Below the pieces are notes generated by a model that saw nothing but the letters and a program-made list of their open reading frames with translations, searched no databases and was not told where the DNA came from. Position numbers and translations under genes: made by a program. Positions 24,686 through 63,563 of a stretch of DNA of 64,000 nucleotides are shown in pieces. Origin of the DNA: Clostridia bacterium (GTDB lineage: Bacteria > Bacillota > Clostridia > Oscillospirales > CAG-272). Location of the stretch: positions 4,419-68,418 of the forward strand of contig JAFZPN010000038.1 in the NCBI GenBank assembly GCA_017550315.1. Reading direction: 5' to 3'. The first letter of the stretch is position 1. Each line of letters opens with the position of its first letter.

Positions 24686-24721
24686 TGCATGATTCCTCCC
24701 TTGAAGCGGATCTATGCATCC

Positions 24722-24811: not shown

Positions 24812-24840
24812 TTGCGAAACCGTCCGGCTTATGCTATACT
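24812..24840 (+). promoter_or_regulatory. sigmaA-type promoter for the SGNH hydrolase gene
   Basis: TTGCGA (24812-24817), 17-nt spacer, TGcTATACT (-10 at 24835-24840). Confidence 0.55.
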
Positions 24841-24887
24841 GGTCTTGCAAGGATCCCCGAATTCTCATGGAACGGAGTTGAATCGAG

Positions 24888-25868
24888 ATGAAACTCATAG
24901 CCTGTACCGGCGATTCCCACACCTGGGGGCAGGGAGGCGCGGGCGTGCGGGATGCGTTCGACAAGTGGACCTCGCCCGTCATCGCCGGAGAACACCGGAT
25001 GCTCCCCTTTGCCACGGGAGCGTATGTCAATCTCCTGCGGGAGTACGTAAACGCATATACCGGCTCCTCCGCGTCGGATTATGAGGCGCCGGTCCTGTGC
25101 CGGGCCTTCGGACTCGAAGCGGACGGGAACTGCGCGCAGGCAGACGGGCTCCGCTTTCCCTTCGACGGCGCGCTTCTGCGGCTGCAGTTCCGCTATACGC
25201 CTGCGCATGTCCGCGCCGCGGTCCGTGTGGACGGGGAGACGCTCTGGGAAGACGATCTCTTTCGCGAAGAGCGGAGCAATCCCTACAACCTCGTCACGCT
25301 GATGCTCCCGGACGGCCGTCACTGCGCAGAGATCACGGGTCCCGGCGCGCCGCTGTACCGCCTCGAGGTTTACCGCGGACCGTGGGCGGTGGTCAACTGC
25401 GGCGTCGGGAGCTGTCCCGTCGGAAAGTTTCTCGCGGAATACTACGACAAACTGGTTGCGCCGCTCCGTCCGGTCGCCGTGCTGGCGGAAGGGCATACGA
25501 TCAACGACTGGATCGTCGACCGGGATGCGGACGAGCAGGAAGAGAACATGACCGCCTTTTTCCGCCGGATCCGCGCAGACGGGGCCGATCCGTGGCTTCT
25601 GACGGTGGAACCGATCCTCGGCTCGCTCGCGTCCCCTCTCTCCGGGCACCCGTTCGGGGATTTTGACGAGGCTTGCCGCCGCGCCGCACGAGCCGAAAAC
25701 GTACCTCTCATCGACGCCTATGCCGCGCTCGCCGAAAAGCTGGACGCGTTCCCGGACGAACAGGCGCGCTTTGACGCCTGGTACGAGGACAACTGGCATC
25801 CGAACGCTGCCGGTCACGCGCTCTACGCCTCCCTCTCTTTCGACGCGCTCCGGCACATCCTCGCCTGA
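24888..25868 (+). CDS. SGNH/GDSL-family hydrolase (probable carbohydrate esterase; 326 aa)
   Basis: Block I is ACTGDSHTWG (GDS with the Ser nucleophile). Block V is DNWHPNAAGH (DxxH). Confidence 0.75.
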   Translation: MKLIACTGDSHTWGQGGAGVRDAFDKWTSPVIAGEHRMLPFATGAYVNLLREYVNAYTGSSASDYEAPVLCRAFGLEADGNCAQADGLRFPFDGALLRLQFRYTPAHVRAAVRVDGETLWEDDLFREERSNPYNLVTLMLPDGRHCAEITGPGAPLYRLEVYRGPWAVVNCGVGSCPVGKFLAEYYDKLVAPLRPVAVLAEGHTINDWIVDRDADEQEENMTAFFRRIRADGADPWLLTVEPILGSLASPLSGHPFGDFDEACRRAARAENVPLIDAYAALAEKLDAFPDEQARFDAWYEDNWHPNAAGHALYASLSFDALRHILA

Positions 25869-25904: not shown

Positions 25905-25933
25905 TTGCATATCCGCGCGGGATATGGTATAAT
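25905..25933 (+). promoter_or_regulatory. sigmaA-type promoter for the binding-protein gene
   Basis: TTGCAT (25905-25910), 17-nt spacer, TGgTATAAT (-10 at 25928-25933). Confidence 0.65.
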
Positions 25934-25970
25934 CAAATCACCACTACTTCATCGAAAAGGAGAAGTTCCC

Positions 25971-41878: not shown

Positions 41879-43375
41879 TCATTCGCCTTCGCGGATGGAC
41901 TCGACGAGCTTGGAGAACACCTTGTTGTAGACCTTTTCGCTCTTCTTGAAGGTGGATGCGAAATCGGTGCTCTTCGACACGCCGATCAGGTCGCGGAGGG
42001 AGAGCATCATGTTCGACATGCCGTAGTTGTAGATGTACGCGAAGTCCGTCTTCATGGAATCGTGGATCAGGTCGATGACCTGGGAGGCGGCGTCCGAGGA
42101 ATCGCGGCGGTACTTGTTCTTTAAGATCACGTCGTAGTAGCTCGGCATCACGTCGTAATAGTAATAGTATCCCATCTTCTCGAGCACCGCCGTGGAGGTC
42201 TTCACGTTCTGACTCACCACGGGGATGCAGAGGATCACCGCGTCGTCATGCGTGGCGGAGCCGTAGGTTTCGATGGTCTCGTCCAGCTTCGGAACGGGGA
42301 CGATCGTGAAGTCCGTCTGCATGTCGCGGATCATATCCAGGCGCGAGAATTTTTCGCAGAGGAAGAGGACCTGGTTGTTCTCCATCATCTCGAAGGTCGG
42401 GATCCCCTCGACGTAGTAGGAGCCTTCGTTGTTCCAGAGAAAATCGACGAGGGTCTCGACGAACTTGACCGTCGTGTCGTTGTTGAAGTCGATGTAGGGC
42501 ACGCCTTCCTCATCGCGGGCGCAGCCGTGCACGCCGCAGTCGATGATGAAGTGGTCGACGTCGCTGCGGGTCCAGGACGCAAAGCCGAAGGTGTCGCCGA
42601 CGTCCTTTTTGCCGTTGCCGTTCCCGTCGACGTACAGGCTCCCGACGATCTCGGAAAGCTTGTCGAAGGTCCAGTCGCCGTTCAGGATGGTTTCATAGAT
42701 ATCCCCCACGTCCCGGCCGATGTCGGTGAGCAGGTCGGTGTTGAGGATCATCATGGAGGCGCGACGGAACACGTCGGGCGAGGCGTCTCCCGCAAGGAAA
42801 TAGGTGTGGGTGTTGTCGGCCATCGTCTCGTGGATGTAGTTGAGATACCACCACGGCTTCTCGTAGTCGATATACACGTCTTCGCACTCGTTGAGGTTGG
42901 CGAAGATGTGCTGCGACACGACCGGCGCGACCTTCCACTGCGTGCCGTACACGATCTCGTAGATATCGTCGCCCGCTTTGTATGCGTTCGTCAGCTTGGT
43001 CGGCTCGATGCCGCCGTTTTCGATGTGCTCGAACGTGCAGTCGAGATCCTCCATGACCTTCTGATTGGAGGTGAAGACCGCGTCGTTCAGAAGTTCGCCG
43101 TTGAGTTCCGTCACGCTGACGTTATAGGTCTGCTGGTCGTGGAAGTGCAGGAAGCGGACGGAGCTCCCGCCCAGGCTCAGATCTTCCGGCACGGAGCAGA
43201 CGAGCATCTCTTCCGCCGCCTCCGTCTCCGCCTCTTCCGCCGCCGGGGTCACTTCCGTGTTTCCCGCGTCCGCACCCCCGGCCGGATCGCCGTTTCCTTT
43301 TTCACTGCATCCCGCGAAAGCGGGGACGAGCATCACGAGCGCCAGAAGAAGCGCCGTCAGTTGATTTCGTTTCAT
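41879..43375 (-). CDS. Extracellular solute-binding lipoprotein (498 aa), paralog 2 of 3
   Basis: MKRNQLTALLLALVMLVPAFAGCSEKG contains an FAGC lipobox. It shares the YEKPWWY and C-terminal MPSYYDVILKNKYRRD blocks with the other two. Confidence 0.7.
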   Translation of the reverse strand: MKRNQLTALLLALVMLVPAFAGCSEKGNGDPAGGADAGNTEVTPAAEEAETEAAEEMLVCSVPEDLSLGGSSVRFLHFHDQQTYNVSVTELNGELLNDAVFTSNQKVMEDLDCTFEHIENGGIEPTKLTNAYKAGDDIYEIVYGTQWKVAPVVSQHIFANLNECEDVYIDYEKPWWYLNYIHETMADNTHTYFLAGDASPDVFRRASMMILNTDLLTDIGRDVGDIYETILNGDWTFDKLSEIVGSLYVDGNGNGKKDVGDTFGFASWTRSDVDHFIIDCGVHGCARDEEGVPYIDFNNDTTVKFVETLVDFLWNNEGSYYVEGIPTFEMMENNQVLFLCEKFSRLDMIRDMQTDFTIVPVPKLDETIETYGSATHDDAVILCIPVVSQNVKTSTAVLEKMGYYYYYDVMPSYYDVILKNKYRRDSSDAASQVIDLIHDSMKTDFAYIYNYGMSNMMLSLRDLIGVSKSTDFASTFKKSEKVYNKVFSKLVESIREGE

Positions 43376-49136: not shown

Positions 49137-50162
49137 ATGACAAGAGAAGAGGTTCGCGCGGCCATCCGGTTCGGAACTCCGCCGCGTCCGCCCCGCGCGT
49201 TCACCAAATGGTGGGGAGAGGGACTCGGGGAACAGTACGGAGCCGCGCTCTCCCGGTTTGACCGCTATGAGGAGGACGTCACGGTCGTCCCGTTTCCGTG
49301 TCCGTCCTTCACGCCGCGGGACGACGGGTTTTACTGGCGGCTGCCGACGATCGACCGTTCCCGCATGACGGGGATGGATTCCGCCGCCGCGCTCCCCGAC
49401 TGGGACGATCTCCCGGCCCTGCTCGCCGCTCTGCCCGATACGGACGCCCCCGGACTCTTTGACGACGCTGCGCGGATGGCAGAAGAGGCGCGGGCACAGG
49501 GACGGTATGTCCTGATCCACCACTGGTCCCTCATGTACGAGCGGATCTGGAACTTCCGCGGGATGGAGACCCTCATGATGGACTATTACGACTATCCCGA
49601 TGAGGTCCACGCTCTGCACCGCGCCATCTGCGACACGGAGATCAAGCTGTTCCGCCGGGCCATGCGCGAGGTGAAGCCGGACGGCTACATGATCAGCGAC
49701 GACCTCGGCACACAGAAAGCCCTCATGATGAGCCCCTCCACCTTCCGGGAATTCATCAAGCCCTATTACCGGGAGCTCTGGGGACTGGTGCGCGGATGCG
49801 ACGTGGACGTCTGGCTGCACACCTGCGGCAACATCACGGAGATCATCGGCGATCTCATCGAATGCGGGCTCTCCGTCCTGCACCCGATCCAGAAGCACAC
49901 GATGGACTGGGACGAGGTGGCGGCAAAGTGGAAGGGAAAGGTCGCGTTCTGGGTCGGGATGGACGTGCAGGACACGCTCATCAACGGGACCCCGGAGGAC
50001 GTCCGGCGCGAGGTGCGGCTCATGCGCGACACGTTCGACTCTCCGGCGGGCGGCTTTCTGTACGCGGCGGGGAACGGCATCGTACGAGGAACGCCGCTTG
50101 AGAACATCGAGGCCTTCCTCTCCGAATGCCTGACATACGGAAACGACGGAGAGATGCAATGA
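49137..50162 (+). CDS. URO-D superfamily protein, MtaA/MT2-like short form (341 aa)
   Basis: VWLHTCGNITEIIGDLIECGLSVLHPIQ (H-x-C-G) and the C-terminal GGFLYAAGNGIVRGTPLENIEAF match the URO-D/methylcobamide-methyltransferase barrel. Paralog of 52463-53452. Confidence 0.65.
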   Translation: MTREEVRAAIRFGTPPRPPRAFTKWWGEGLGEQYGAALSRFDRYEEDVTVVPFPCPSFTPRDDGFYWRLPTIDRSRMTGMDSAAALPDWDDLPALLAALPDTDAPGLFDDAARMAEEARAQGRYVLIHHWSLMYERIWNFRGMETLMMDYYDYPDEVHALHRAICDTEIKLFRRAMREVKPDGYMISDDLGTQKALMMSPSTFREFIKPYYRELWGLVRGCDVDVWLHTCGNITEIIGDLIECGLSVLHPIQKHTMDWDEVAAKWKGKVAFWVGMDVQDTLINGTPEDVRREVRLMRDTFDSPAGGFLYAAGNGIVRGTPLENIEAFLSECLTYGNDGEMQ

Positions 50163-52462: not shown

Positions 52463-53452
52463 ATGACAAGATACGAACGGGTCAAAGCCGCCCTTGCGCA
52501 CCGCACGCCGGACCGCGTCCCCTCCTGCATCCACCTCGCGGGCGACGGTCAGCAGGCATATTTCGGGAAGCTCTACGACCGGTACGTCACGGGAGAACTG
52601 CGCGAAAAGCAGAAGGCCGGGCTGATCTCCTACGCCAACGCGATCTATTACGGCATGGGGAACCATGTGCTCCCCGTCGGATGCCCGTGGTGGGGGTGGA
52701 AGGATCTCCCGCCGGAATACGGATACGAGGAAGCGCCGGGATTCTTGCCGAAGACCGTGGGATACGGGAGCTACGAAGGCTTCGCCGCGGAGGTCCGGAA
52801 CCTGAAGGAAAACACCGACGCCTACGTCCTCGTGACGATCTGGGGCAGCCATTTCGAGAAGGCCAATTTCGCCCGCGGGATCGAAAACTTCCTCGCCGAT
52901 CTCGCCGCAGATCCGGAATACGCGCAGTCGATGCTCGATTTCATCATCCATAAGAACCTCGTGATGCTCGAGAACATCGTGAACATCCCCGGCATCGACG
53001 GCATCCTCCTCGGCAGCGACTGGGGATCCCAGCGCGATCTTCTCATGTCCCCGTCCACCTGGCGGACGATGATTCGGCCCGGCGAGGAGCGGGAATACAA
53101 GATCATCAAGGACGCGGGGCTCGACGTGTGGATCCACTCCTGCGGCGATATCCGCAAGATCATGCCCGATCTCTACGACATGGGAATCGACGCGCTCAAC
53201 CCCGTCCAGCCGGAGTGCATGGACATCTATGAGCTCAAGGACCGCTACGGCGACCGGATCACCTTCTGGGGCGGCATCAGCACCCAGCGGACACTCCCGT
53301 ACGGAACGCCCGAGGACGTGAAGCGTGAAGCGCGGGAGATCGCCGCTTACATGGGCCGGGACGGCGGGTACATCCTCGCGCCGTCGCAGGAGATCCAGGC
53401 CGACGTGCCCTACGAAAACCTCTGCGCGCTGATCGAAGCGGCGGAGGAGTGA
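52463..53452 (+). CDS. URO-D superfamily protein, MtaA/MT2-like short form (329 aa)
   Basis: VWIHSCGDIRKIMPDLYDMGIDALNPVQ (H-x-C-G), ITFWGGISTQRTLPYGTPEDVKREAREI and GGYILAPSQEIQADVPYENLCALIEA together form a typical URO-D/MtaA-like C-terminal half. Confidence 0.7.
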   Translation: MTRYERVKAALAHRTPDRVPSCIHLAGDGQQAYFGKLYDRYVTGELREKQKAGLISYANAIYYGMGNHVLPVGCPWWGWKDLPPEYGYEEAPGFLPKTVGYGSYEGFAAEVRNLKENTDAYVLVTIWGSHFEKANFARGIENFLADLAADPEYAQSMLDFIIHKNLVMLENIVNIPGIDGILLGSDWGSQRDLLMSPSTWRTMIRPGEEREYKIIKDAGLDVWIHSCGDIRKIMPDLYDMGIDALNPVQPECMDIYELKDRYGDRITFWGGISTQRTLPYGTPEDVKREAREIAAYMGRDGGYILAPSQEIQADVPYENLCALIEAAEE

Positions 53453-53489
53453 CGAAAAAGACACGGCACAGAATACGCAGCAAGAAAAC

Positions 53490-53535
53490 GGCTGCCGCAT
53501 GCAACCGATAGAGGGAAATGCGGCAGCCATTCTTT
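53490..53535. terminator. Hairpin terminator between convergent units
   Basis: 11-bp perfect stem GGCTGCCGCAT/ATGCGGCAGCC (53490-53500 with 53518-53528) and a 17-nt loop. AAAA upstream and ATTCTTTCT downstream. Confidence 0.55.
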
Positions 53536-53561
53536 CTGTCATCGTTTTGTTGGAGCTTTGA

Positions 53562-56500
53562 TCACGCGTTTCCGAGCAGGCGGTACAGGAAGGTCACGAT
53601 CTGGCCTCTCGTGCAGACGTCATTCGGCGCGAAGAGGCTGTCCGAGACGCCCCTCGTCACACCGCGGGAGAGAGCCCAGACCACCGCATCGCGGTAATAC
53701 GCGCCGTCCGGCACATCGAGGAACGGATTCTCTCCGTCGGCCGCTTCGTCCATCAAGCGGCAGAGCAGGGTGACTGCCTGGCCGCGGGTGACGGATTCGC
53801 CGGGCGAGAAGTGCGCGGGATCCGTTCCGGTGGTGACCCCGTTCTGATAGGCCCAGAGGACCGCATCGGCGAAGTAGGCATCCCCGGGAACGTCGGCGAA
53901 GGGATTCGCCGCATCTGCGGGAGCGGGACAGCCGGCAGCGCGCCAGAGGAAGGTGATCATCTGCGCGCGGGTGCAGGAGCCGTCCGGCGCAAAGTGCGTC
54001 TCATCCACACCGGCGGTGATCCCGAGCTTCACAGCCCAGTCCACGGCGTCCGCATAGTACGCACCGGCAGGCACATCGACGAACACGGGTGTCTGCTCTG
54101 CGGCCGGCACATCCGGCGTCACGGGCGTATTGTCTGCCGCGGGAGCTGCGGGTGCGGCGTCCGTCTGCGGCTTGGATTCGGATTCCAGAGCGGCGCGGCG
54201 CAGGGCGAGCAGCTCGGACCCGATGGACGGGAAGGGTATCCACGGCCGGACGGAGGTGCCGGGCTTCTCCTCCTCTTCCGGTTTCTCCGGTTCGGCAGGG
54301 AGCAGATTGAATGTGTATTCCGCATCGACAAAGGATTCGTACCACTTCTCTTCCCAACTGTCGTAGTACGCCGGAATGTGGTACAACATCTCTATATCCT
54401 CACCGTTGATGGTGAAGAGTCCGGCGTATGTGTATTCGTCATCCGGATCGACGTAAAACGCGACGTCATCCGCACACAGAAATACTTTGAAACCGAAGGT
54501 CCATTCCAGATCGCCGTCCAGAGCGGTCTCTTCCGTGACGTCTTCGGCGAAATATTGGTAACGATATTCTTCGTCGTGGAGCAGGAATTCTCTCGGCTCA
54601 TACGGAACGCCGTCCGGCGCGCGCAGGAGGAGGAGATCCTCTCCGCGGTCGTCCTCATGGGGAATTTCGTAGGTCAATTCGATCTTGTCGATCAGACGGA
54701 TCCATTTTGCCGAGAGGATCATGTCCTCCTCCGCGAGGAGGTCGTCCCACGGCGTCCCGTTCTCATCTTCCCAATCGACGAACTGCCAGCGCCAGCATAC
54801 CGTATCGTCCTTGTATGTGCCGAGGTCGTCCGGCCTCATGCCCGACAGGCTGAGCGGCGTGCCCTTGTCCATCGTCACGGGATCGGGAGCAGGCGCATAG
54901 CCGTCCGTGTCAAACGAAACGGTGACCTGTTCCGGCGTGCCGATCGTGAATTTCCACGTGCCGCTGACGCGCATCTCGCCGTCCCGGTATTCCACCGTGC
55001 GGTTCCCGAAATCCTCCCCGTTGAGGGTAAAGCGGGAGTCGGCCGGACCGGAATGTCCGATCATGACAAGCGTCGCATCAAGGTAATAGACCTTGCCGCT
55101 CTCCAGGACATCGTCATCCGTCCGCCAGGCAAGGTCTTCGACGGTCAGCCACGGCAGGCCGAGCGCCTTCGCGGCATCCTCCGTCTCACCCGGGGCGGCA
55201 GCTGCGTCATCCCCTGCGGCAGGTTCCGTGATCGTGAGCGCGATGTCATCCGGCACCGGTGCGGGAGCCAGCAGCTTCAGCCGCGCGAGGATCACGTCGG
55301 GATGGTGGGAGAACACGAGCGTGCCGCTGTCGAGCGCGAGGTTGAGCACGGAGCTGATGATCGATTGAATGTCTTCGGGTATATCGTAGTCTTCCGCGTA
55401 CACTGCCAGATTCTGCGCGACGTATTCTTCCGCGTTCGGGAGGATATAATCTTCCTCTAAGGCGGGCGAGACATCCACGAGCAGAGGCGCGAGGAGATTC
55501 AAGAGCGCGTAGACCCCGGTTTTCTCGACGGAGGCCCCGATCTTCTCCGTCATCAGAGCGCAGACGCGTTCCGTGATGCCGTAATACTGTTCGGCGGATG
55601 CCGCGATCGCCGCATCCTTATCTTCGCCTGCGGGGAGGGTCTGGGCGTACGCATCCGCGCAGCACGCGAAGACCAGCCGGGAGAGGACGTCGATCAGTTT
55701 CTCCATCTCGCCGAGCAGCTCGGTGAGCTCCGTCTTCAGGGCGTCCATCGCCTCCGGTGAACCGAAAATCACATGGCACAGAGCTTCCAGCCCCTCCTGA
55801 TACGTGAAGGATCCGATTTCGGGCCGTTCGTTCGGCGCGGTATAGGCATCCCGCGTGGGAACGGTCGTGCCGAGGCTGTCCGTCAGGGATGTGAGATATT
55901 CCTTCACGCTCATCCCGTATTTATCGGCATAGTTCCGGTTGTAGTGCGGATCCGCCTGATCGTTTCCGAGATAGTATTCCGCGGCCGGCGCGTTCAGCTT
56001 CTCGAGCGATTCCATGACCTCGTCGAAGGAAAACCGCGTGTTGTAGATGAATTCCTCGCCGTAGCGGGTCATGCCCCAGAGAGGCAGCATCGTGACCGGG
56101 TCGTCGTCGGAGAGGTAGTTGTGGATGCCTGTGTACCGCGTATCGTGTGCGTCCGCGTTCTCCGTCGTGGCGGGGGCTTCCAGCGTATAGCCGAAGACCG
56201 TGGGATGGCTGTCCCGGTCGAGCAGATACGCCGCCGCAAGATTCGCGATCGCGCCGCCGCGGCTCTGTCCCGTGACGAGGAGGATATCCTCTTCTCCGAA
56301 TCCGAGCGCATCAAAATCGCTGAGGAAGGCTTTCGCGGCGGCGGAATACGAGGCGTGGTCGGGCGTCGTGTTGTCCGCGCTGTTCACCTTGACATTCTGC
56401 TGCCAGCCCTTGTCGCCGTAAAGATCGCCCTGGAACGAGACGACTGCTAGCTTTCTGTCGCCGAGCGTCTTCGTGCCGAGGATGTAGGCGCTGTCGTCCG

Positions 56501-56846
56501 CCGACGTGCTGTCATACCGTTTGCCTGCGGCGTCGAACCCGAGTGCGGTGAGCGTGTCGACGACATGGCTGCTGTCATCCGTCGAACCCGCGGCGAGCTG
56601 TGCGGCCCACAGCGCGAGGCTGTCGTTGCGCTCCGACGGATCGGCGTCGAACCATTCGTCGGTGTAATAGCAGCTGTCGGTGACGTATTCGTTCAAAACT
56701 TTGGAGAAGTATTCCAGCTTCGCCGTCTGATAATCGGCTTCGCTCTCCTCGGCGGCGAAAACCGCGGACGGCACCGCGCCGATGCAAAGGACAAGCGCAA
56801 GCAGGAAGGAAAGAAGCCGGATTCTTGTTTTCTTCGTGTTGGTCAT
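53562..56846 (-). CDS. Secreted, SLH-anchored lipase/esterase-like protein (1094 aa)
   Basis: Signal peptide RIRLLSFLLALVLCIGAVPSAVFAAE. Class-3-lipase-like elbow LLVTGQSRGGAIANLAAAYL (GxSxG). Three C-terminal SLH repeats: FVDVPAGAYYADAVDWAV..., FADVPGDAYFADAVLWAY... and FLDVPDGAYYRDAVVWAL.... Confidence 0.7.
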   Translation of the reverse strand: MTNTKKTRIRLLSFLLALVLCIGAVPSAVFAAEESEADYQTAKLEYFSKVLNEYVTDSCYYTDEWFDADPSERNDSLALWAAQLAAGSTDDSSHVVDTLTALGFDAAGKRYDSTSADDSAYILGTKTLGDRKLAVVSFQGDLYGDKGWQQNVKVNSADNTTPDHASYSAAAKAFLSDFDALGFGEEDILLVTGQSRGGAIANLAAAYLLDRDSHPTVFGYTLEAPATTENADAHDTRYTGIHNYLSDDDPVTMLPLWGMTRYGEEFIYNTRFSFDEVMESLEKLNAPAAEYYLGNDQADPHYNRNYADKYGMSVKEYLTSLTDSLGTTVPTRDAYTAPNERPEIGSFTYQEGLEALCHVIFGSPEAMDALKTELTELLGEMEKLIDVLSRLVFACCADAYAQTLPAGEDKDAAIAASAEQYYGITERVCALMTEKIGASVEKTGVYALLNLLAPLLVDVSPALEEDYILPNAEEYVAQNLAVYAEDYDIPEDIQSIISSVLNLALDSGTLVFSHHPDVILARLKLLAPAPVPDDIALTITEPAAGDDAAAAPGETEDAAKALGLPWLTVEDLAWRTDDDVLESGKVYYLDATLVMIGHSGPADSRFTLNGEDFGNRTVEYRDGEMRVSGTWKFTIGTPEQVTVSFDTDGYAPAPDPVTMDKGTPLSLSGMRPDDLGTYKDDTVCWRWQFVDWEDENGTPWDDLLAEEDMILSAKWIRLIDKIELTYEIPHEDDRGEDLLLLRAPDGVPYEPREFLLHDEEYRYQYFAEDVTEETALDGDLEWTFGFKVFLCADDVAFYVDPDDEYTYAGLFTINGEDIEMLYHIPAYYDSWEEKWYESFVDAEYTFNLLPAEPEKPEEEEKPGTSVRPWIPFPSIGSELLALRRAALESESKPQTDAAPAAPAADNTPVTPDVPAAEQTPVFVDVPAGAYYADAVDWAVKLGITAGVDETHFAPDGSCTRAQMITFLWRAAGCPAPADAANPFADVPGDAYFADAVLWAYQNGVTTGTDPAHFSPGESVTRGQAVTLLCRLMDEAADGENPFLDVPDGAYYRDAVVWALSRGVTRGVSDSLFAPNDVCTRGQIVTFLYRLLGNA

Positions 56847-56873
56847 TTTTTGGATCTCCTGTTCGGGATGGGT

Positions 56874-58025
56874 TTACGGGATGAGCGCCGCGGTCCAGCC
56901 ACTCGAGAAATTCTCTCTCCGGTACCACGTCGCCGTCAGATTGGTCTGGTCGTAGATCACGCTCCACTCCGTCCGCTCGTTCGGATCCGGATCGAAGTTC
57001 GATTCCCCGGCGGCGGTCAGCGCATCGCGCACTTCATAGATCGAGGCGGTCGGATGGGAGGCGAGGAAGGCCTCGAGGACCTTGAACCTCTGATGGGACT
57101 GCGCCGCGCCGATCCCGTACTTCTCGCCTTCCGTGACGTAGAAATTCGTGAGGACGGGCGTTTCGGTGACGCACATTTCCTGTCCGATGTATTCCACGGC
57201 GACCGCATGTCCTGACGCATCCGTTACGGCAAAGTGGATCATCATGTCGTAGGATCCGTGAAGGTCGTATTCGCCGAGCAGGGCAAGGGCTTCGTCCGTG
57301 GTGGCTGCCCGGTCGAGCAGGAGCCGCAGGGCGGTGGTCGTCGTGAGATCGGGCAGATCGGTCTTCTGGCCGATGCGGGCGGAATCGTTGATCATGTTGA
57401 CGGACACCGCGAGTCCCTTCTCGTTCATCCCGTCGAGCGGCGCGTAATAAGCTGCCGTGGGGATCGCTTCCATCGGCAGGCTCGATGCGCTTTCCTTGAT
57501 GAAATCGACGTTGACGGTCGAGAACGAGGCATAGCCGCCGTCCGGATGCGCTTCGAGGAGGAGCACCTCGCGGCAGCTCCAGTCGAAATTGCGGCCGAAG
57601 AACTGTCCGCCGTCCGGTGACGCGACGGAAACCGTGCTGCATCCGACGCCCGGGATCTCCAAGTTCAGGCCGGGCACGCAGAGCATGCCGCTGAGAAACG
57701 CGAGCACCTCCCGGTCCGAGGATGCGCCGCCCGCTTCGAGAAACGCGGAGAAGCCGCAGTCCCCGACCCGGGCGATGTAGACGTTCGACGCGATCTCCTC
57801 GATCCCGTCCTGCGGTGCGGTGACCGTCACGGCACAGAGATCCGTGTCCGTATCGTCCTCCGGCGCGGCGGGTTCGGTCTCTTCTTCTTCGGGTTGTGTT
57901 TCCGGTGTCTCCGGCGCTGCGGATGCCTGTGTTTCCGGGGCGGGAGCGGGGGACTCTTCTTTCTTCTGACAGGCCGGCAGCAGGAAGCAGAGAAGTGCGA
58001 GAAGCACGCAGATGATTCGTTTCAT
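56874..58025 (-). CDS. Lipoprotein Cys-Ntn linear-amide hydrolase (choloylglycine hydrolase/C59 family-like; 383 aa)
   Basis: LPAC lipobox, an acidic Pro/Glu/Thr linker and a ~60-aa pro-region. Then GVGCSTVSVASPDGGQFFGRNFDWS matches the nucleophile-Cys plus xGRNxDW signature of bile-salt hydrolase, penicillin V acylase and ceramidase-type Ntn hydrolases. Confidence 0.65.
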   Translation of the reverse strand: MKRIICVLLALLCFLLPACQKKEESPAPAPETQASAAPETPETQPEEEETEPAAPEDDTDTDLCAVTVTAPQDGIEEIASNVYIARVGDCGFSAFLEAGGASSDREVLAFLSGMLCVPGLNLEIPGVGCSTVSVASPDGGQFFGRNFDWSCREVLLLEAHPDGGYASFSTVNVDFIKESASSLPMEAIPTAAYYAPLDGMNEKGLAVSVNMINDSARIGQKTDLPDLTTTTALRLLLDRAATTDEALALLGEYDLHGSYDMMIHFAVTDASGHAVAVEYIGQEMCVTETPVLTNFYVTEGEKYGIGAAQSHQRFKVLEAFLASHPTASIYEVRDALTAAGESNFDPDPNERTEWSVIYDQTNLTATWYRRENFSSGWTAALIP

Positions 58026-58048
58026 AGTGTCAAGATCCTCCTGTCCGT

Positions 58049-59161
58049 TCATTCCGGCTGTTTCGCGCCGAACACGTCCCGGATCGCTTCGAGATAGCCG
58101 TAGCCCCAGACGTCGTCCGGTTCGAGATAACTCATTTCGGTCCATTCGTTCCACGAGTTGATCGTGATGAGCGGCACGCCGTTATAGGCGTCGCTGTATG
58201 CCTTCGCCATTTCGAGACCTTTCTTGAAATTCTCTGGCGTGTTGTTCTTCATGACCGGCAGCGTGAGGAAGTGATGCCGCGGGTTGTTGTCCCAGCCGAC
58301 GGTGACGTGGGGGTAGAAGGGAACGTCATATTCCGCATGAATGCGCTCCCATTCTTTCGCGACGTCCGGCAGGATCTCCAGATAATCGCGGTTGCAGTCC
58401 GTGAAGTGGACGAATTGATAATGCGTGACCGAATCGAAGCCGAGCAGCCGCACAAGATCCTTGGTCGAGCCGGTATGCGCGCTGTCCACGCCGCTGACGT
58501 TCACGGCTCCCTCGCCGTAGATCGTCGCCTGCAGATGCAGATCGGGGAATCCCGCCTCCCTGACGAGGGACCGGAAGGCTGAGAGTGCTTCCCGCGTCTT
58601 CTCGATCCCGCCGAGCCCGCGAACAAGGTTCGACATTTCATAGATCATGAACACCGGGCAGCCGCCGATCTTGTAGTAGTTCGGCCGCATGAAATAGAGA
58701 TCGATCACCCGGCGGCAGACGCGGTCGAATTCTTCCCGGTTCTGGGAGCCGAGCCAGATCGTCCCGTCCCGCCCGGACTGCCGTTTGTCCCAGGTGTAGC
58801 CCGCGTCGTGATTCGCCCACATGAGGTAGAACTTCATGTCCTCATTGTTCGGCGCGCCGAGGAAGCCTTCGTCGAGACACTGTTCGAGGAAGGGCCGCCG
58901 GTCGTACCAGTACCAGTCGTAGATGAAGACGTTCACGCCATGACGGAGAGCCTCTTTGATCTGGAATTCCATCACGGCCGGATCGGCCTCGTCGACGGTT
59001 CCCCAGAGCGGATGCCGGGGCAGGATCTGTCCCTCGAGGCGGCTTTCGGCGGTGAGGACGGACTGCCATTCGCCGATCCCCTGTTCCCAGAACTGATAGC
59101 TGCGCGGCTCGCGTCCCGTATAGGAAGGCCAGATGTAGGCTGCGATGTCATACTTTTTCAT
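58049..59161 (-). CDS. WbsX-like / GH99-like TIM-barrel protein (370 aa)
   Basis: IAAYIWPSY...FWEQGIGEWQSV...PRHPLWG...HGVNVFIYDWYWYDRRPFLEQ follows the pattern I recall for the Glyco_tran_WbsX domain (YLPQFH..ENDxWWGKGFTEW..., GfcfYhYWF.Gk..Le.P). No signal peptide. Confidence 0.5.
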   Translation of the reverse strand: MKKYDIAAYIWPSYTGREPRSYQFWEQGIGEWQSVLTAESRLEGQILPRHPLWGTVDEADPAVMEFQIKEALRHGVNVFIYDWYWYDRRPFLEQCLDEGFLGAPNNEDMKFYLMWANHDAGYTWDKRQSGRDGTIWLGSQNREEFDRVCRRVIDLYFMRPNYYKIGGCPVFMIYEMSNLVRGLGGIEKTREALSAFRSLVREAGFPDLHLQATIYGEGAVNVSGVDSAHTGSTKDLVRLLGFDSVTHYQFVHFTDCNRDYLEILPDVAKEWERIHAEYDVPFYPHVTVGWDNNPRHHFLTLPVMKNNTPENFKKGLEMAKAYSDAYNGVPLITINSWNEWTEMSYLEPDDVWGYGYLEAIRDVFGAKQPE

Positions 59162-59191
59162 AGGGTTGTCTCCTTTGCTGTCTTGGCTGAC

Positions 59192-60727
59192 TTATTTGAT
59201 TCCCTCGTACTTCTCAAGCAGCTTTTCGAGGGATTTCATCGTGACCTTTTCGTTCTTCGCCAGGGATGACGCGGCGTTTTCACAGTTTGTCGCGGAGGCA
59301 AGAAGACCGCGGATCTTGCCGATGGGGGAGTTCAGGCTTCCGCCGAAGATGTAGCCGATATCGAGATAGATCCCGTCCACGATAATGTCAAGCATCTGGG
59401 AGGTTTCGGAATCGCGGGAGTACTTTGCCTTGAGCGCCGTCTCAAAGTAGGCGGGCGTCACCGTGCGGAAGGATTCAGCGCTCATGGCTTCGAGGAACGC
59501 CGCGACCATGGCCGCATCCGGCTCCGTGACGGGGATGCTGAAGGAGGAGGATGCATCGTGGACATATTCGGCGTATTTTTCCTGCGCCGTGTCAAGCTTC
59601 GGCATCGGCAGGATCCCGAAGTCGGATTCCATATCGCGCAGCAGATCGATGCCCGAGAGCATCCACGTGACGAAAATCGTCTGGTCCGCCTTCATCGTAT
59701 CCATGATCTGGTCGTTGTTGTACGGCAGACGCAGGGTGTTCGTCCCCTCGAAGAGGAGCTTGTGCATTTTCTCCGTGAAAGTGATCATCCGGTCGCAGGT
59801 CGCGTTGAAGAACCACGTTCCGTCGTCAGCTTTCTTCAGGTATTCGACTCTGGCCGCTCCGTAGAAGGAATCTGCGCCGAGCGTGTCGGTGTTCGTGAAG
59901 TAGTGACCGAAGATATCGCCTTCATCCGGTGATCCGTTGCCGTTCGCGTCCTGATAGACCGGTTCGCAGAGGGAGGTCATCTTGTCGATGGTCCATTCCC
60001 CCTCGTTTACGATCTGATAGAGGTTGATCTCTCCGTTGTAAAAGGTGTCGAACAGGGTCCTGTTGAAGAACATCACGAACGCACCGGAGATCATCGTCTG
60101 CCCGATCTCGCCCATGACGGTGTAGTTGTGCCCGTTGAAATTGGTCTGCTCCAGAAAGGCATGGTTGTACCACGGCGCCGAGAAGTCCAGGTACGGCAGC
60201 TCTTCCATCGGCAGAAGGATGTTCTCCATCGTCAGGGACATCATCGAATACATGCCGTTGCCGAGCAGGTCATAGTCATTGGTCCCGGAGGCGACGGATT
60301 TCTGAATCTGGGTATTTGTGCCGCCGTGGATGTTGACTGCTGCGAGGATCAGATCCATCGCAATGTTCAGTCTCTCCTGCGCGGCGAGATTCCGGGCATA
60401 CACCGCGTCGTTGACCACTTCGCCGTTCAGTTCTTCCGCCTGAAATTCCATCAGGGTGTCACGGTCGCCGCCGCGGGTGAAGAAGTGCAGCGTCGCGCCG
60501 CCGAAGTCGAGATCATCCGGCAGCGAGTCCTTCACATTGGAGCGTCCGTTGCCCGCGGGTTCTTCGGGATCCTCCGCCAGGGCATCCGCCGTGGGAGCAT
60601 CCGCGGTCAGCGCGGGGGAAGCGGTCGGTTCGTCGGTTGCGCCGTTCCCGCCGGATGAGCAGGAGACGGTCCCCCAGAGCAGGAGCGCCGCAAGGAGCAG
60701 GGAGAGGATGCGCATTCTGTTTTTCAT
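59192..60727 (-). CDS. Extracellular solute-binding lipoprotein (511 aa), paralog 3 of 3
   Basis: MKNRMRILSLLLAALLLWGTVSCSSGG contains a VSC lipobox. It shares FSAPWYN and TPAYFETALKAKYSRD with the other two paralogs. SD GGAGG (7 nt). Confidence 0.7.
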   Translation of the reverse strand: MKNRMRILSLLLAALLLWGTVSCSSGGNGATDEPTASPALTADAPTADALAEDPEEPAGNGRSNVKDSLPDDLDFGGATLHFFTRGGDRDTLMEFQAEELNGEVVNDAVYARNLAAQERLNIAMDLILAAVNIHGGTNTQIQKSVASGTNDYDLLGNGMYSMMSLTMENILLPMEELPYLDFSAPWYNHAFLEQTNFNGHNYTVMGEIGQTMISGAFVMFFNRTLFDTFYNGEINLYQIVNEGEWTIDKMTSLCEPVYQDANGNGSPDEGDIFGHYFTNTDTLGADSFYGAARVEYLKKADDGTWFFNATCDRMITFTEKMHKLLFEGTNTLRLPYNNDQIMDTMKADQTIFVTWMLSGIDLLRDMESDFGILPMPKLDTAQEKYAEYVHDASSSFSIPVTEPDAAMVAAFLEAMSAESFRTVTPAYFETALKAKYSRDSETSQMLDIIVDGIYLDIGYIFGGSLNSPIGKIRGLLASATNCENAASSLAKNEKVTMKSLEKLLEKYEGIK

Positions 60728-60764
60728 GTTTCTGCCTCCGTATATTTTTCTTTTCGGATTGCGT

Positions 60765-63350
60765 TTATCGGAGCCACGTGAGCGGGCCGATCAGCCCGGA
60801 CGCGGGGATCGCCATATAGGCGGAGAATCCGTCGCGCACGGCGTTGGCAAGCGTATTCGAGACCTCGATCACGAGCGCGTTTTCTCCGTCTCGGAGCGCG
60901 TCCGTGAGATCGTACCGGTACGGCGGGCAGACGCGGACACCGAGATCCCGTCCGTTGAGCCACAGGTGCGACGTCTGGCCGACCTCTCCGAGATCGAGGG
61001 CGAGGGATTCCCGCTTGCCTGTGAACGAAGCGGTGTAGCGGATCCGCCCGGAGAAGCCGGGATCCCCCTCCGCCGAGGTGATGTTGAAGAGCCCGGACGC
61101 GGGGACAGCCTCGGCGACGGTCGTGAAATCGCCCAGCGCGGTGTACGGCGCCTGCTCAATGCGGAAGGTGAGTTCCGCGGGAGCCGCCGGAGCCCATGTC
61201 TTCTTATCCGGGAGCGCGGGGCATGTCCCATCTTTCCCGAATACGGCGATCACGGATTGATACGGCGCGAGGTCCAGTGCAAGTCCGCCGTCCGCGATTT
61301 TTACGCGCGCGCAGTCGTCGTTCAGGAGATCGAGCAGGACGCCCTCCCTCACGCCGTCGAGGTTCGTGAGCCGGACGGTCGTCTTCACCGGATCCGCCGT
61401 GGATTCGTTGACGAACATGTAGATCTCCGACGAGCCGGCACTCACGTGGGAGCAGCGCAGCATCGGGTACCCGCCGTCGACCGTGAGATCCCGCGCGAGG
61501 AACCCGTCGAGGATCGCGAGCAGTTCCTCCGGTGCGGTGTCCGGCTGCATGCGGATCACGGGGATCCCCGCCTCTCCGAGCAACTCGAGCGCATCGGTCA
61601 GCGGCTTCGGCAGTTCTTTTGCCGCCGGGACGATGAGGCACTGATACAACGCCTGCCCGACACGGAGCCGTCCGTTCTCCGCGCGCGCGGGATGGACACG
61701 GCTTCCGCTCGCCCCTCCGGTGAAGCAGTCGGCGGGGAGAATGTCGAAATCGATGTGCGCGTCGTAAAGCGTCTTCGCCGGGACCTGTGTGAGCATCGCG
61801 TCGCCGTCCTTGTTCATCCATTCGGCGTCGGCGTGATAGAGGATCGCGCAGTCCACACGGGGGATGCCGCCCGAGAGCAAATGCGCCGCGCGGTTGCCGT
61901 AGGTCATGAGCTTCGAGAAGGCCTCAAACTGCGGATCGGATCCGTTCGCGCCGAAGTGGGGCGGGCAATCGGGATCCGGGAAAGCCGGGGAGAACGCATG
62001 CGGTACGAAGTGATTCACGCCGCGCACGAGCAGGTAGTCGAGCAGCCATTTCATCGCCGGTCCGCCCTCCGCCCAGCCGTATGCGCCGAAGACCTCGCAC
62101 ATCGCGCGGCCCTCCGTCTGCGTCCCGATGCGCGCGAAGGAGGAAGCCAGCTTGGCGAGCACATAGTCGAAGAACGCAGGATCGGCATTGTTCCCGAAGG
62201 TGGATGCGGAGTGGATGTAATCGCTCATGCCGGGCATGATCTGATGCAGGACGATGTCGATGCCGCTCATGTGCTGTCCGTCGAGGGAGCGGAAATAGTG
62301 ACCCGCGCTGCATCCGGTCCGCGCATGGGCGTTCATGTCCTCGATGATGTGGCCGATATACTGCACACCGTGCGCCTCGCACCAGTCGCCGAGCTGCCGG
62401 GTGAAGCAGTCGCGGTAGAGTTTCGTCACCGCGTCCATGTAGGCGTGCCGGACCGCGCCTGTCGCCTCTCCCATACCGAACCAGAGGGCGGGGAGGTACG
62501 GGAGCGGATCAAAGCCGAGGGCTTCGTGCATCATCGCGGGGATGCGGTCGTTCCACGGGAGGGCGAGTCCGGGCATCCCGACGCGGCGGTCATACATGCC
62601 CCGGTCGACGGCGTGCGAACCGAACCACGTGTTCCCGAGGGACGGCTCGTCCGAGAAGAACCCGGCGATGGTCGTGCCGAAGTATTTCGCATAATGTGCG
62701 TAATGGCTCTCGTAGACCGCGTCGATGAGGACCCGCACGGATTCTTCCGAGAGCATGTCGATGTAATCGGGATGGCTCGTCCCGCGGCGGGTCTTGTAGA
62801 GGAAGAAGACGCGCCAGCACCCCGCGGGGATCGTAAAGCGCAGGAAATCGCCGCAGACCCCGTCGGTCAGCCGGATCCAGTCGGGCGCGCAGTCCTCGAG
62901 GATCTCGCTTTTCGCGGACGGGACGCGGCGGCAGGCGTAGACGTCGAGGAGGATGTGCTCGTCGCTTGTCTTGTCCGTCATGAGCAGGGCGTCCGTGAGC
63001 GGGCCCATCACGTCGACGTGACGCTCGGCGAGCTGCCAGTTGCGCAGTTCGGGGTGATCCTTGATCCGGCCTGCGGCGTGACCCGTCGGGAAGTGGTCGT
63101 CGTCGAGGATCCAGACCTTCATGCCGCGCTTTTCCGCTTCCGCGAGGATGATGTCCATATCGCGCCACCAGCCTTCGCCGACGAAATCGCGGTGCGGTCT
63201 CGATTCGACGCAGAACGCCCGCGCGCCGCTCTGCCGGATCCGCTCGACCTCTTCCGGGATCGAAGCGGTGTGATCCCCGTGCTGCCAGTAAAAGGGAAGC
63301 ATATAGTTGTCTTCTTTGCCGCGCAGAACATCGTCCAGTCGCTGATACAT
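60765..63350 (-). CDS. Putative TIM-barrel glycoside hydrolase with C-terminal galactose-binding-like domain (861 aa); paralog of 19576-21516
   Basis: MLPFYWQHGDH...KVWILDDDHFPTGHA, FSDEPSL and WCEAHGVQYIGHIIED. The C-terminal LDLGEVGQTSHLWLNGRDLGVRVCPPYRYDLTDALRDGENALVIEVSN is the classic GH2-N/sugar-binding jelly-roll motif. No signal peptide. SD AGGAGG (6 nt). Confidence 0.55.
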   Translation of the reverse strand: MYQRLDDVLRGKEDNYMLPFYWQHGDHTASIPEEVERIRQSGARAFCVESRPHRDFVGEGWWRDMDIILAEAEKRGMKVWILDDDHFPTGHAAGRIKDHPELRNWQLAERHVDVMGPLTDALLMTDKTSDEHILLDVYACRRVPSAKSEILEDCAPDWIRLTDGVCGDFLRFTIPAGCWRVFFLYKTRRGTSHPDYIDMLSEESVRVLIDAVYESHYAHYAKYFGTTIAGFFSDEPSLGNTWFGSHAVDRGMYDRRVGMPGLALPWNDRIPAMMHEALGFDPLPYLPALWFGMGEATGAVRHAYMDAVTKLYRDCFTRQLGDWCEAHGVQYIGHIIEDMNAHARTGCSAGHYFRSLDGQHMSGIDIVLHQIMPGMSDYIHSASTFGNNADPAFFDYVLAKLASSFARIGTQTEGRAMCEVFGAYGWAEGGPAMKWLLDYLLVRGVNHFVPHAFSPAFPDPDCPPHFGANGSDPQFEAFSKLMTYGNRAAHLLSGGIPRVDCAILYHADAEWMNKDGDAMLTQVPAKTLYDAHIDFDILPADCFTGGASGSRVHPARAENGRLRVGQALYQCLIVPAAKELPKPLTDALELLGEAGIPVIRMQPDTAPEELLAILDGFLARDLTVDGGYPMLRCSHVSAGSSEIYMFVNESTADPVKTTVRLTNLDGVREGVLLDLLNDDCARVKIADGGLALDLAPYQSVIAVFGKDGTCPALPDKKTWAPAAPAELTFRIEQAPYTALGDFTTVAEAVPASGLFNITSAEGDPGFSGRIRYTASFTGKRESLALDLGEVGQTSHLWLNGRDLGVRVCPPYRYDLTDALRDGENALVIEVSNTLANAVRDGFSAYMAIPASGLIGPLTWLR

Positions 63351-63563
63351 AAAGAGCCTCCTGCATCTCCCGTCCTATCGAAGGAACGGGAGGGACTGGG
63401 TTGGATGGATGCGGAAAATCTGCACCAAATTAAATATATTATACCGGATTCACCGTGAAATTACTATAAAAATCCTGTACGGAAAATCGTGAGTTTCTGA
63501 CCGTGGAACGTGCGCTTTTTGGGAGATTCTCTTCGTGGAATCGGTCGGCATCCGCGCTCAGGC

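Follow-up and report, generated by a model that had tools for sequence, protein, structure and literature searches.

Five closely spaced minus-strand genes in the genome of an uncultured Clostridia bacterium of high GC content from rumen or gut combine two glycosidase-like proteins, a binding lipoprotein, an amidase lipoprotein and a surface protein with a lipase-type fold, and the locus raises the question of whether such a combination is a dedicated pathway or an assembly of separately acquired parts. A sequence-only reading of the window (the whole stretch of 64,000 nucleotides, 64 kb, analysed here) had proposed a unit for deconstructing a glycolipid or lipoglycan. The families and the operon structure of that proposal stood, its functional unity was lost in the synteny comparison, and nothing specific to a lipid substrate was found. 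The five genes are most likely a recent lineage-specific patchwork rather than a conserved glycolipid-dismantling machine.

Layout of the operon

The gaps between the genes (Table 1) are 37, 30, 23 and 27 nt, as previously read, and the GC3 of all five (0.76-0.84) shows the bias typical of genuine genes from this genome. Given the 23-37 nt gaps and a single terminator, all five genes are probably co-transcribed, and hence co-expressed, here, and may therefore act on a common substrate. The leader contains a 70-nt block, conserved in relatives, that includes a TATAAT-like -10 box; read from 63503 to 63434, the block is 81-86% identical to the sequence preceding the GH106-like gene in L001, L007 and L009. 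Promoter function of this block is what we infer, because a strict sigma-70 scan of the region gave no full promoter match; a search of the leader against Rfam matched no RNA family. The hairpin had been read as the end of the unit, which is borne out by its stem, its energy (-32.9 kcal/mol; z = -3.56 against shuffled sequences) and a U-tract that follows it on the minus strand. On the plus strand a T-rich tract also follows the hairpin, past a URO-D-like gene ending at 53452, and from its position between convergent genes the terminator is probably bidirectional.

Table 1. Features of the five-gene operon and its flanks (window positions, or residues where marked aa)
Feature	Position	Strand	Basis or remark
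Gene 1, 861 aa, cytoplasmic glycosidase, distantly GH106-like	60765..63350	-	C-terminal rhamnosidase-type jelly-roll
Gene 2, 511-aa lipoprotein, predicted sugar-type ABC solute-binding fold, orphan	59192..60727	-	AlphaFold model and Foldseek
Gene 3, 370 aa, cytoplasmic WbsX/GH99-like TIM-barrel enzyme	58049..59161	-	PF14307
Gene 4, 383-aa lipoprotein, C45/CBAH superfamily, predicted Cys-Ntn amide hydrolase or acyltransferase	56874..58025	-	NCBIfam, Pfam
Gene 5, 1094 aa, secreted, cell-wall-anchored predicted serine hydrolase	53562..56846	-	Lipase_3 and SLH
Gene 5, Sec signal	aa 1-31
Gene 5, class-3-lipase-fold domain with ~260-aa helical insert	aa about 40-530
Gene 5, beta-rich region	aa 541-900		no Pfam match
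Gene 5, three SLH repeats	aa about 918-1094
5' leader with predicted promoter	63351..63563	-	contains 70-nt block 63434-63503
Intrinsic terminator hairpin	about 53490..53528	-	13-bp GC-rich stem, then GUUUUCUUG
Lineage-specific cassette: lipase-SLH gene with RBS and terminator, in a variable slot	53453..56851	-	blastn breakpoints

Families and folds of the five proteins

Profile searches with the four Pfam families implied by the sequence-only reading (PF02275, PF01764, PF00395 and PF14307) all returned matches. Gene 1 had been described as a cytoplasmic glycosidase-like protein; the glycosidase character stands and inspection of the N-terminus revealed no signal peptide, with the correction that the protein is only distantly GH106-like. 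It scored 22.1 bits against GH106 (Pfam PF17132), under the cut-off of 29, and its C-terminal jelly-roll scored 49.7 bits against a cut-off of 50 (NCBIfam rhamnoside_JR). In a PDB search, residues 552-840 matched the GH106 structures 5mwk and 5mqm (E 3e-12) and no other part matched. These are structures of the alpha-L-rhamnosidase BT0986, with which gene 1 recognisably shares the jelly-roll at the C-terminus and some of the barrel, but from which it differs in its sub-threshold Pfam score and its weak match over the catalytic domain; the sequence hints at GH106 membership. The GH106-like family is a large one, with 7303 cluster representatives at E ≤ 1e-3, and its members are usually found beside sugar ABC permeases, an SBP_bac_1/DUF3502 binding protein, AraC, GH42, GH78, GH2 and Gfo/Idh/MocA genes, the GH78 neighbours of some relatives being rhamnosidases, which recalls the GH106 alpha-L-rhamnosidases.

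The WbsX/GH99-like call for gene 3 was sustained by a strong match to the WbsX family (PF14307, 158 bits, cut-off 25.1) and by retention of the NEWxE motif. Its residues W337-N338-E339-x-x-E342 are invariant and align with 'SFNEWHEGT' of the GH99 endo-alpha-mannosidase 4acz, and we take the Glu pair of the motif, from the GH99 literature, to be the GH99 catalytic residues. While gene 3 shares this motif, aligned to the 'NEWHEG' segment, with GH99 endo-alpha-1,2-mannosidase/mannanase, it differs from GH99 enzymes in scoring below threshold against the GH99 model (PF16317, 20.5 bits, cut-off 33) and in being cytoplasmic (no signal peptide was seen at its N-terminus). A literature search returned nothing on WbsX as a glycoside hydrolase or on PF14307.

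Gene 2 gave no Pfam match even at E ≤ 10, and PDB searches with the single sequence and with a seven-sequence profile returned nothing meaningful. Its AF2 model (pLDDT 87.7) matched the oligosaccharide-binding proteins 5f7v, 3jzj, 7vfr and MalE in Foldseek (E about 1e-13, probability 1.0, target TM-scores 0.57-0.73). By its predicted fold, gene 2 would be a sugar-type solute-binding protein, and this fold together with the invariant lipobox cysteine C23 upholds the earlier identification as a solute-binding lipoprotein. Some homologues carry SBP_bac_1 or SBP_bac_8 matches (PF01547, PF13416) and are named 'extracellular solute-binding protein'; the homologues appear to form a family of sugar-binding lipoproteins that Pfam misses. 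Two more gene 2 paralogues lie elsewhere in the window. No ABC permease or ATPase was present within the window or beside the three homologues inspected, and the transport partner must be encoded elsewhere.

Gene 4 was taken to start at the ATG at 58025, which follows a GGAGGA ribosome-binding site, rather than at the start of a longer GTG ORF. The protein scored above cut-off against CBAH (PF02275, 36.1 bits, cut-off 20.4), AAT (PF03417, 39.8 bits, cut-off 23.2) and the NCBIfam C45_proenzyme family (NF040521, 98.8 bits, cut-off 85) and carries an LPAC lipobox, in agreement with its earlier description as a Cys-Ntn lipoprotein. No variation was seen among 27 homologues at C129, R145, D148, N210 and N294, and G128 is nearly invariant; the spacing from the cysteine (+16, +19, +81, +165) is close to that of the canonical bile-salt hydrolase (BSH) residues given in PMC8228234, which also counts choloylglycine hydrolase, penicillin acylase and acid ceramidase among the superfamily members. 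Gene 4 thus shares with PF02275/PF03417 enzymes the Gly before the Cys nucleophile and the Arg, Asp and Asn at BSH-like spacing, and with the C45 acyl-CoA:6-APA acyltransferase proenzymes a pro-segment ahead of the Cys; self-cleavage is predicted at G128|C129. It differs from choloylglycine hydrolase and penicillin V acylase (PVA) in being a lipoprotein with a low-complexity linker, and its nearest solved structures, of the choloylglycine hydrolase/PVA type, are matched at E 1e-8 to 1e-4 only. That the amidase is an ordinary bile-salt hydrolase, which the sequence-only reading had named as a possible outcome, was rejected because of its low score against the BSH equivalog (NCBIfam NF038245, 23.5 bits, cut-off 350) and its lipoprotein and pro-segment architecture.

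Acid ceramidase and NAAA, which also undergo self-cleavage at an internal Cys, fall within the same Ntn superfamily as gene 4. Neither was detected in the PDB by phmmer with gene 4 or by the family profile, which found only BSH and PVA, and the likeness to gene 4 is one of superfamily. The amidase family as a whole numbers more than 2000 members, and we know of no characterised member of the gene 4 clade; an exact-sequence database look-up of the protein returned no record and a literature search on peptidase C45 as an Ntn hydrolase returned nothing.

For gene 5, the previously noted GQSRGG elbow, three SLH repeats and secretion were all recovered. Three copies of SLH (PF00395, 96.6 bits) were matched, the same region matched the SLH domains of Sap and SbsB in the PDB, and the Lipase_3 score was 25.2 bits (PF01764, cut-off 22). 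Across 13 sequences, S195 of the elbow G193-Q-S195-R-G-G is nearly invariant, D248/D249 and H514 are invariant and S513 is conserved; H514 is the only conserved His and lies ~265 residues after the Asp, beyond the ~260-aa helical insert. The AF2 model (pLDDT 77.9) matched EDS1/PAD4, the lipases of Rhizomucor miehei and T. lanuginosus and A. niger feruloyl esterase A (FaeA) in Foldseek, and the lipase-like domain resembled FaeA about as well as true lipases. With class-3 lipases and FaeA, gene 5 shares the GxSxG elbow, the DDPV Asp motif and the predicted fold, and with plant EDS1/PAD4 (a lipase-like plus a helical domain) the predicted fold, but it differs from all of these in its distant His, the added beta-rich region and the SLH repeats. 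The sequence tentatively suggests a lipase. Homologues are rare (12 found, in unrelated contexts, adjoining STAS, HTH/HMA and aldo-keto-reductase genes), and they may represent a rare lipase-fold family with a large helical insert. The best database match to gene 5 is only 45% identical; the closest matches of the binding protein and the amidase are 92-95% identical.

Gene order in relatives

The expectation that the five genes form a conserved functional unit failed in the synteny comparison, where they were not co-conserved across diverged genomes. Genes 1 to 4 occur as a block with 83-86% DNA identity in at least 3 species-level lineages, limited to close relatives (amidase at least 79% identical), and the retention of this block is compatible with selection for the combination. 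In relatives an AraC gene lies directly upstream of the block; in this genome AraC is absent from that position, which is occupied by a Gfo/Idh/MocA gene. Blastn homology to the relatives breaks off sharply at 56852 and picks up again at 53452, and in the relatives the slot between these breakpoints holds Rce1-like, MerR and GH116 genes, with or without a 5'-nucleotidase/LysM gene. The lipase-SLH gene was found in none of the 6 related contigs with the amidase neighbourhood, 0/80 amidase loci and 0/80 GH106-like loci; one lipase-lacking contig retains 94.7% DNA identity across the amidase, to 22 nt past its stop codon. Arrival of the lipase gene on a mobile element was considered, but the cassette showed no transposase, integrase or flanking repeats, and GC3 of gene 5 (0.77) is like that of the neighbouring genes.

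Beyond the close relatives the remaining genes also part company. The amidase is linked to the glycosidases of the block in 1/80 GTDB species loci and is present in 0/80 GH106-like loci. In ~65 other Clostridia species (hosts in Lachnospiraceae, Oscillospiraceae and Anaerotruncus), an amidase homologue 42-55% identical lies in a conserved operon of LysR, amidase, AMP-ligase, ABC ATPase and FtsX/MacB permease genes, without glycosidases. Within the rumen clade (amidase 61-72% identical), the amidase is always embedded among glycosidases: LacZ-type GH2 beta-galactosidases adjoin it in 3/6 loci, and GH20 hexosaminidases, DUF4838 and a GH38 alpha-mannosidase are also present. A GH106-like gene 79% identical to gene 1 stands alone (L095), and a gene 2 orthologue (62% identical, L092) adjoins a gene with a PI-PLC-X domain. 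On three unrelated metagenome contigs (L103, L146 and L158), a WbsX gene 58-62% identical to gene 3 lies next to or near a GH106-like gene 39-47% identical to gene 1, a pairing which suggests that the GH99-like and GH106-like enzymes form the functional core. The window itself is a glycosidase island, with GH95-like, GH20, GH101-like, melibiase-type, GH4, GH76-like, DUF4838 and BNR genes and several further esterases (GDSL, alpha/beta hydrolases).

A probable mosaic operon and alternative functions

We favour, at a probability of roughly 0.6, an ordinary polycistronic sugar-use operon in a fast-rearranging glycosidase island, with two recently recruited surface hydrolases. Whereas gene order, family and fold calls, predicted signals for localisation, the terminator and synteny were observed, we infer co-transcription, substrates and a division of labour as follows. 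One promoter in the conserved leader block would drive a ~9.9-kb transcript ending at the hairpin, and the lipid-anchored binding protein would capture an oligosaccharide at the cell surface and pass it to the ABC permease encoded elsewhere. Breakdown would follow in the cytoplasm, with the GH99-like enzyme endo-acting (NEWxE motif) and the GH106-like enzyme exo-acting, while the amidase lipoprotein and the SLH-anchored serine hydrolase plausibly strip amide- or ester-linked non-sugar groups outside the cell. These two surface enzymes would be recent additions and not obligate partners: the amidase would have entered the block only in this genus-level clade, and the lipase-SLH gene would have dropped into the variable slot in this genome alone.

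The arrangement resembles the AraC-regulated sugar operons of Firmicutes with LplABC-type transporters in pairing a sugar-binding lipoprotein with cytoplasmic glycosidases, and the resemblance extends to the AraC gene of the four-gene relatives and to the LplABC-type transporters of GH106-like relatives. It differs in that no permease or ATPase lies in the operon or the window, no AraC gene lies upstream here, and two secreted hydrolases other than glycosidases have been added. Should the mosaic reading be correct, the locus would be another example of rumen Clostridia reshuffling genes for glycosidases, esterases and binding proteins in hypervariable islands, and tight operon spacing alone would be no evidence of a dedicated pathway.

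It is rather unlikely that both surface hydrolases are passengers with no functional tie to the sugar operon whose promoter they share, the amidase acting on small N-acyl amides (signals, antibiotics or conjugates of bile acids or amino acids) and the SLH enzyme serving as a general lipase or in envelope remodelling. The glycosidase-free LysR/AMP-binding/FtsX operon of the ~65 species and the scattered neighbours of the lipase homologues would fit such a role, but the constant glycosidase company of the rumen-clade amidase argues against it, as does the spacing of 23-27 nt between the amidase and its neighbours with no internal terminator, which implies co-regulation with the sugar genes.

We give little credence to a dedicated pathway dismantling one acylated glycoconjugate, be it a glycosphingolipid (for instance plant or fungal GIPC), glycolipid, lipopeptide or lipoglycan, in which the SLH lipase would remove ester-linked acyls and the Cys-Ntn enzyme, ceramidase-like, the N-acyl group before the glycan head group is imported and finished by the two glycosidases. 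A weak hint in its favour comes from the PI-PLC-X gene beside the binding-protein orthologue and from GH116 near the block in relatives; both families have lipid-linked glycan substrates in other organisms. Probable co-transcription of all five genes, the predicted extracellular location of the acyl-cleaving candidates with intracellular glycosidases, which fits the order of steps, and the presence of N-acyl amidases in the CBAH superfamily (PMC8228234) are also consistent with it. Set against these are the absence of the lipase from all relatives examined and its unrelated contexts elsewhere, the rarity of amidase-glycosidase linkage, a lipase fold that fits a carbohydrate esterase (FaeA) about as well as lipases, an amidase profile that retrieves only BSH and PVA, and the other esterases scattered through the island, as is usual for plant-glycan deacetylation.

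Similarly improbable is that the amidase clade was recruited in rumen Clostridia as an extracellular glycoconjugate amidase, which might de-N-acylate a glycosphingolipid, a lipoglycan or an N-acylated sugar or cut a glycan-peptide amide, with the glycosidases and the binding protein handling the glycan and the SLH enzyme de-esterifying it in this genome. Least probable is an operon targeting glycoprotein N- or O-glycans from plants, fungi, protozoa or the host, in which the Cys-Ntn enzyme, by analogy with glycosylasparaginase or a glycoamidase, would cut the glycan-peptide-junction or a glycopeptide amide and the GH99-like enzyme would act on the imported glycan as an endo-alpha-mannosidase: the GH2, GH20, DUF4838 and GH38 neighbours of the rumen-clade amidase, the GH20, GH101-like, GH95-like, BNR and GH76-like genes of the window and the GH99 catalytic motif of the WbsX protein fit, but the proposal draws wholly on gene context, we know of no Cys-Ntn CBAH/C45 member that cleaves glycan-Asn bonds, the GH78 rhamnosidase and GH42 genes beside GH106-like genes point to plant pectic or arabinogalactan substrates, and the main conserved context of the amidase in other Clostridia is unrelated to glycans.

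Gene 4 belongs to a large clade of secreted Cys-Ntn lipoproteins whose annotations read 'linear amide C-N hydrolase' or 'choloylglycine hydrolase' and which are clearly not BSH; surveys counting BSH genes from annotation need to take this clade into account.

Families, folds and localisation signals of the five gene products

The five minus-strand genes (Table) are ordered 5' to 3' as GH106-like, binding protein, WbsX, amidase and lipase-SLH, and the sequence-only reading of co-directional genes spaced by 23-37 nt was borne out, with gaps of 37, 30, 23 and 27 nt when the amidase is started at 58025. A longer amidase ORF that starts at a GTG at 58154 is also possible but overlaps the preceding gene; we took the ATG at 58025 because it has a GGAGGA ribosome-binding site and enters directly into a lipoprotein signal (MKRIICVLLALLCFLLPAC). 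GC3 bias in 5/5 genes was that of real genes in the window. On the 5' side, a Gfo/Idh/MocA-type gene ending at 63564 was followed by 210 nt of spacer that contain a TATAAT-like box; at the other end, the hairpin proposed from sequence was confirmed and separates the unit from a convergent URO-D-like gene. Rfam families gave no match anywhere in the 64-kb window. We infer that the five genes are co-transcribed.

Coordinates of the features (window positions unless a locus is named; L001, L007 and L175 are relatives, L016-L088 are loci with amidase homologues)
Feature	Coordinates	Strand	Basis or remark
GH106-like gene, 861 aa	60765-63350	minus	ORF reading
Solute-binding lipoprotein gene, 511 aa	59192-60727	minus	ORF reading; Foldseek on AlphaFold model
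WbsX gene, 370 aa	58049-59161	minus	ORF; Pfam
Amidase gene, 383 aa	56874-58025	minus	ORF; Pfam/NCBIfam
Lipase-SLH gene, 1094 aa	53562-56846	minus	ORF; Pfam
Terminator hairpin, 13-bp GC-rich stem and U-tract	~53490-53528	minus	-32.9 kcal/mol, z = -3.56
Binding-protein paralogues, ~500 aa, 28-33% identical	59192-60727, 25905-27470, 41879-43375		three, including the operon member
Hypervariable slot, amidase to URO-D-like gene	53453-56851		vs L175:2188-6733, L001:11173-17660, L007:11191-15730
Alternative amidase operon, loci L016-L088	e.g. L072:8743-16207, L068:9887-15596, L024:7818-15629		

The 861-aa protein scored 22.1 bits against PF17132 (GH106; Pfam cut-off 29) and 49.7 against a threshold of 50 for a C-terminal rhamnosidase-type jelly-roll (NCBIfam), and its residues 552-840 matched GH106 structures 5mqm and 5mwk; the earlier glycosidase-like call stood as far as a relation to GH106 goes, but with PF17132 below its cut-off the protein is predicted to be GH106-like at a distance only. 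A 720-aa ORF at window 19576-21738, for which Pfam gave no match, is distantly paralogous to it (24.5% identical across 359 aa). The WbsX/GH99-like call was upheld by PF14307 (158 bits) and by an invariant W337-N338-E339-x-x-E342, which lines up with 'SFNEWHEGT' in the GH99 endo-alpha-mannosidase 4acz and shares its NEWxE motif.

The 511-aa protein had no Pfam or PDB sequence match, a small profile included. Its AlphaFold model (pLDDT 87.7, built on a 46-sequence alignment) returned oligosaccharide ABC binding proteins as all of its top Foldseek matches (E ~1e-13, probability 1.0), and some homologues matched SBP_bac_1 or SBP_bac_8; the call of a solute-binding lipoprotein is therefore correct.

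The Cys-Ntn (choloylglycine-hydrolase superfamily) call for the amidase also held (Pfam CBAH 36.1 and AAT 39.8 bits; NCBIfam C45 proenzyme 98.8 vs 85), with C129, R145, D148, N210 and N294 invariant across 27 homologues at a spacing that resembles bile-salt hydrolases (BSH; residue list in PMC8228234). A BSH itself was ruled out because the NCBIfam BSH model gave 23.5 bits, its cut-off being 350. Searched against solved structures, the amidase profile matched BSH and PVA with E-values of only 1e-8 to 1e-5; acyltransferases, NAAA and acid ceramidase were not among its matches.

The lipase-SLH protein carried the expected GQSRGG elbow and three SLH repeats (96.6 bits), with Lipase_3 barely over threshold (25.2 vs 22; Pfam). 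Across 13 sequences the elbow S195 was nearly invariant, and D248/D249 and S513-H514 were invariant; the sole conserved His (FSHxPD) lies ~265 residues past the Asp, on the far side of a ~260-aa all-helical insert (aa 270-530). The model (pLDDT 77.9) matched class-3 lipases, Aspergillus feruloyl esterase A and, as Foldseek's best matches, EDS1 and PAD4, plant immune proteins that likewise join a lipase-like domain to a helical domain. The family is rare, with 12 homologues in a 5.8-billion-protein collection, the closest 45% identical.

Synteny in relatives and the variable slot

In close relatives (amidase identity 79-95%; metagenomes and MAGs of rumen, goat and sheep origin), the order GH106-like, binding protein, WbsX, amidase was kept with an AraC gene in front, and the lipase-SLH gene was present in none. 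Homology by blastn began at 63350, broke off at 56852, which lies 22 nt beyond the amidase stop, and resumed from 53452 onward; the 3.4-kb interval between, comprising the lipase gene and terminator, was replaced in every relative by Rce1-like, MerR and GH116 genes, with or without a 5'-nucleotidase/LysM gene. Flank identity to the relative L175 was 94.7% next to the amidase and 84.6% across the slot from it, a drop that suggests recombination at the slot; given this and the replacements, the slot is a putative recombination hot spot.

Among 80 GTDB species representatives, with neighbours within 10 kb of the amidase, GH106-like and WbsX genes occurred together at 1/80 loci, a binding-protein paralogue at 4/80 and the lipase domain at 0/80. 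The 80 metagenome loci anchored on the GH106-like gene held the amidase in 0/80, binding-protein paralogues in 4/80 and WbsX in 5/80 (three of the five 58-62% identical and adjoining or near the GH106-like gene). Usual neighbours there were two sugar ABC permeases, an SBP_bac_1/DUF3502 binding protein, AraC, GH42, GH78, GH2 and Gfo/Idh/MocA genes, and locus L095 had a 79% identical GH106-like gene without any of its partners. The five genes are not a conserved unit. The three lipase-homologue contexts inspected (STAS, HTH_5/HMA, aldo-keto reductase and DNA polymerase IV genes) were unrelated to the operon.

Candidate function of the locus

The evidence best supports reading the locus as an oligosaccharide-utilisation operon. 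Its core would be an orphan sugar-binding lipoprotein and two cytoplasmic glycosidases, the GH99-like enzyme probably endo-acting and the GH106-like enzyme probably exo-acting. The Cys-Ntn amidase and the SLH-anchored lipase/feruloyl-esterase-fold enzyme would be surface hydrolases, recently added, which may remove amide- or ester-linked substituents extracellularly. The families, folds, localisation signals and synteny are direct results of the analysis; we infer the substrates and step order. A glycoprotein or glycopeptide target would fit the company of beta-galactosidase, hexosaminidase and mannosidase that the amidase keeps in rumen relatives (homologues at 61-72% identity adjoin LacZ-type GH2, GH20, DUF4838 or GH38 genes) and is otherwise unsupported, as is the proposal that the surface amidase and lipase are passengers with unrelated substrates. 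The glycolipid or lipoglycan deconstruction unit of the sequence-only reading found no support; the co-conservation of five genes on which it was to be judged fails.

All five proteins fall into known superfamilies, and operons of this type are familiar; new are the lineage-specific five-gene combination, an uncharacterised amidase clade and a rare family of lipase fold that carries a helical insert.

Amidase and binding-protein homologues and the surrounding island

Amidase homologues at 42-55% identity, from ~65 species of gut Clostridia (Lachnospiraceae, Oscillospiraceae, Anaerotruncus, Christensenellaceae), lay in a different, strongly conserved operon: divergent LysR, Cys-Ntn lipoprotein, AMP-binding (PaaK-like), ABC ATPase and FtsX/MacB-type permease, often with a LysE-type exporter. 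Across the 80 amidase loci, the AMP-binding/PaaK-like enzyme (~445 aa) occurred in 54, the ABC ATPase in 46 and the permease (~786 aa) in 48. In joining an acid-activating enzyme to a C45-type acyltransferase/hydrolase, this operon is reminiscent of the last steps of penicillin biosynthesis. Its product might be an N-acyl amide for export, either made or modified here; we found no published description of it.

Binding-protein homologues at 43-62% identity were 'orphans' adjoining AraC genes and assorted enzymes, with no permease and none of the other four operon genes beside any of those examined. The three window paralogues form a Pfam-unrecognised family, and each has glycosidase genes around it. 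Neither the window nor the surroundings of the homologues inspected in other genomes contained an ABC permease or ATPase; the paralogues must either depend on one distant permease in common or serve some other purpose. At L092:8946-11539 (a Clostridia MAG), a 62% identical orthologue directly follows a PI-PLC-X-domain gene and an AraC gene, the only neighbourhood that hints at a lipid-anchored glycan as substrate of this subfamily.

The window is a glycosidase island with GH95-like, GH20, GH101-like, two melibiase-type, GH4, GH76-like, DUF4838 and BNR genes, together with a glycyl-radical enzyme, two URO-D-like genes, a GDSL esterase, two alpha/beta hydrolases and the binding-protein paralogues. 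The glycyl-radical enzyme (PFL-like, 831 aa) adjoins a DUF1861 protein mid-island (21549-25030), and in a 1107-aa protein (1715-5038) the only recognisable domains are double zinc ribbons at the N-terminus. URO-D-like (uroporphyrinogen-decarboxylase/MtaA-type) genes, at 49137-50162 and 52463-53452 and in L001, L004 and L007, recur in glycosidase islands of several genomes with TfoX_N and low-molecular-weight phosphatase genes; one idea for their role in a sugar island is demethylation of methylated sugars.
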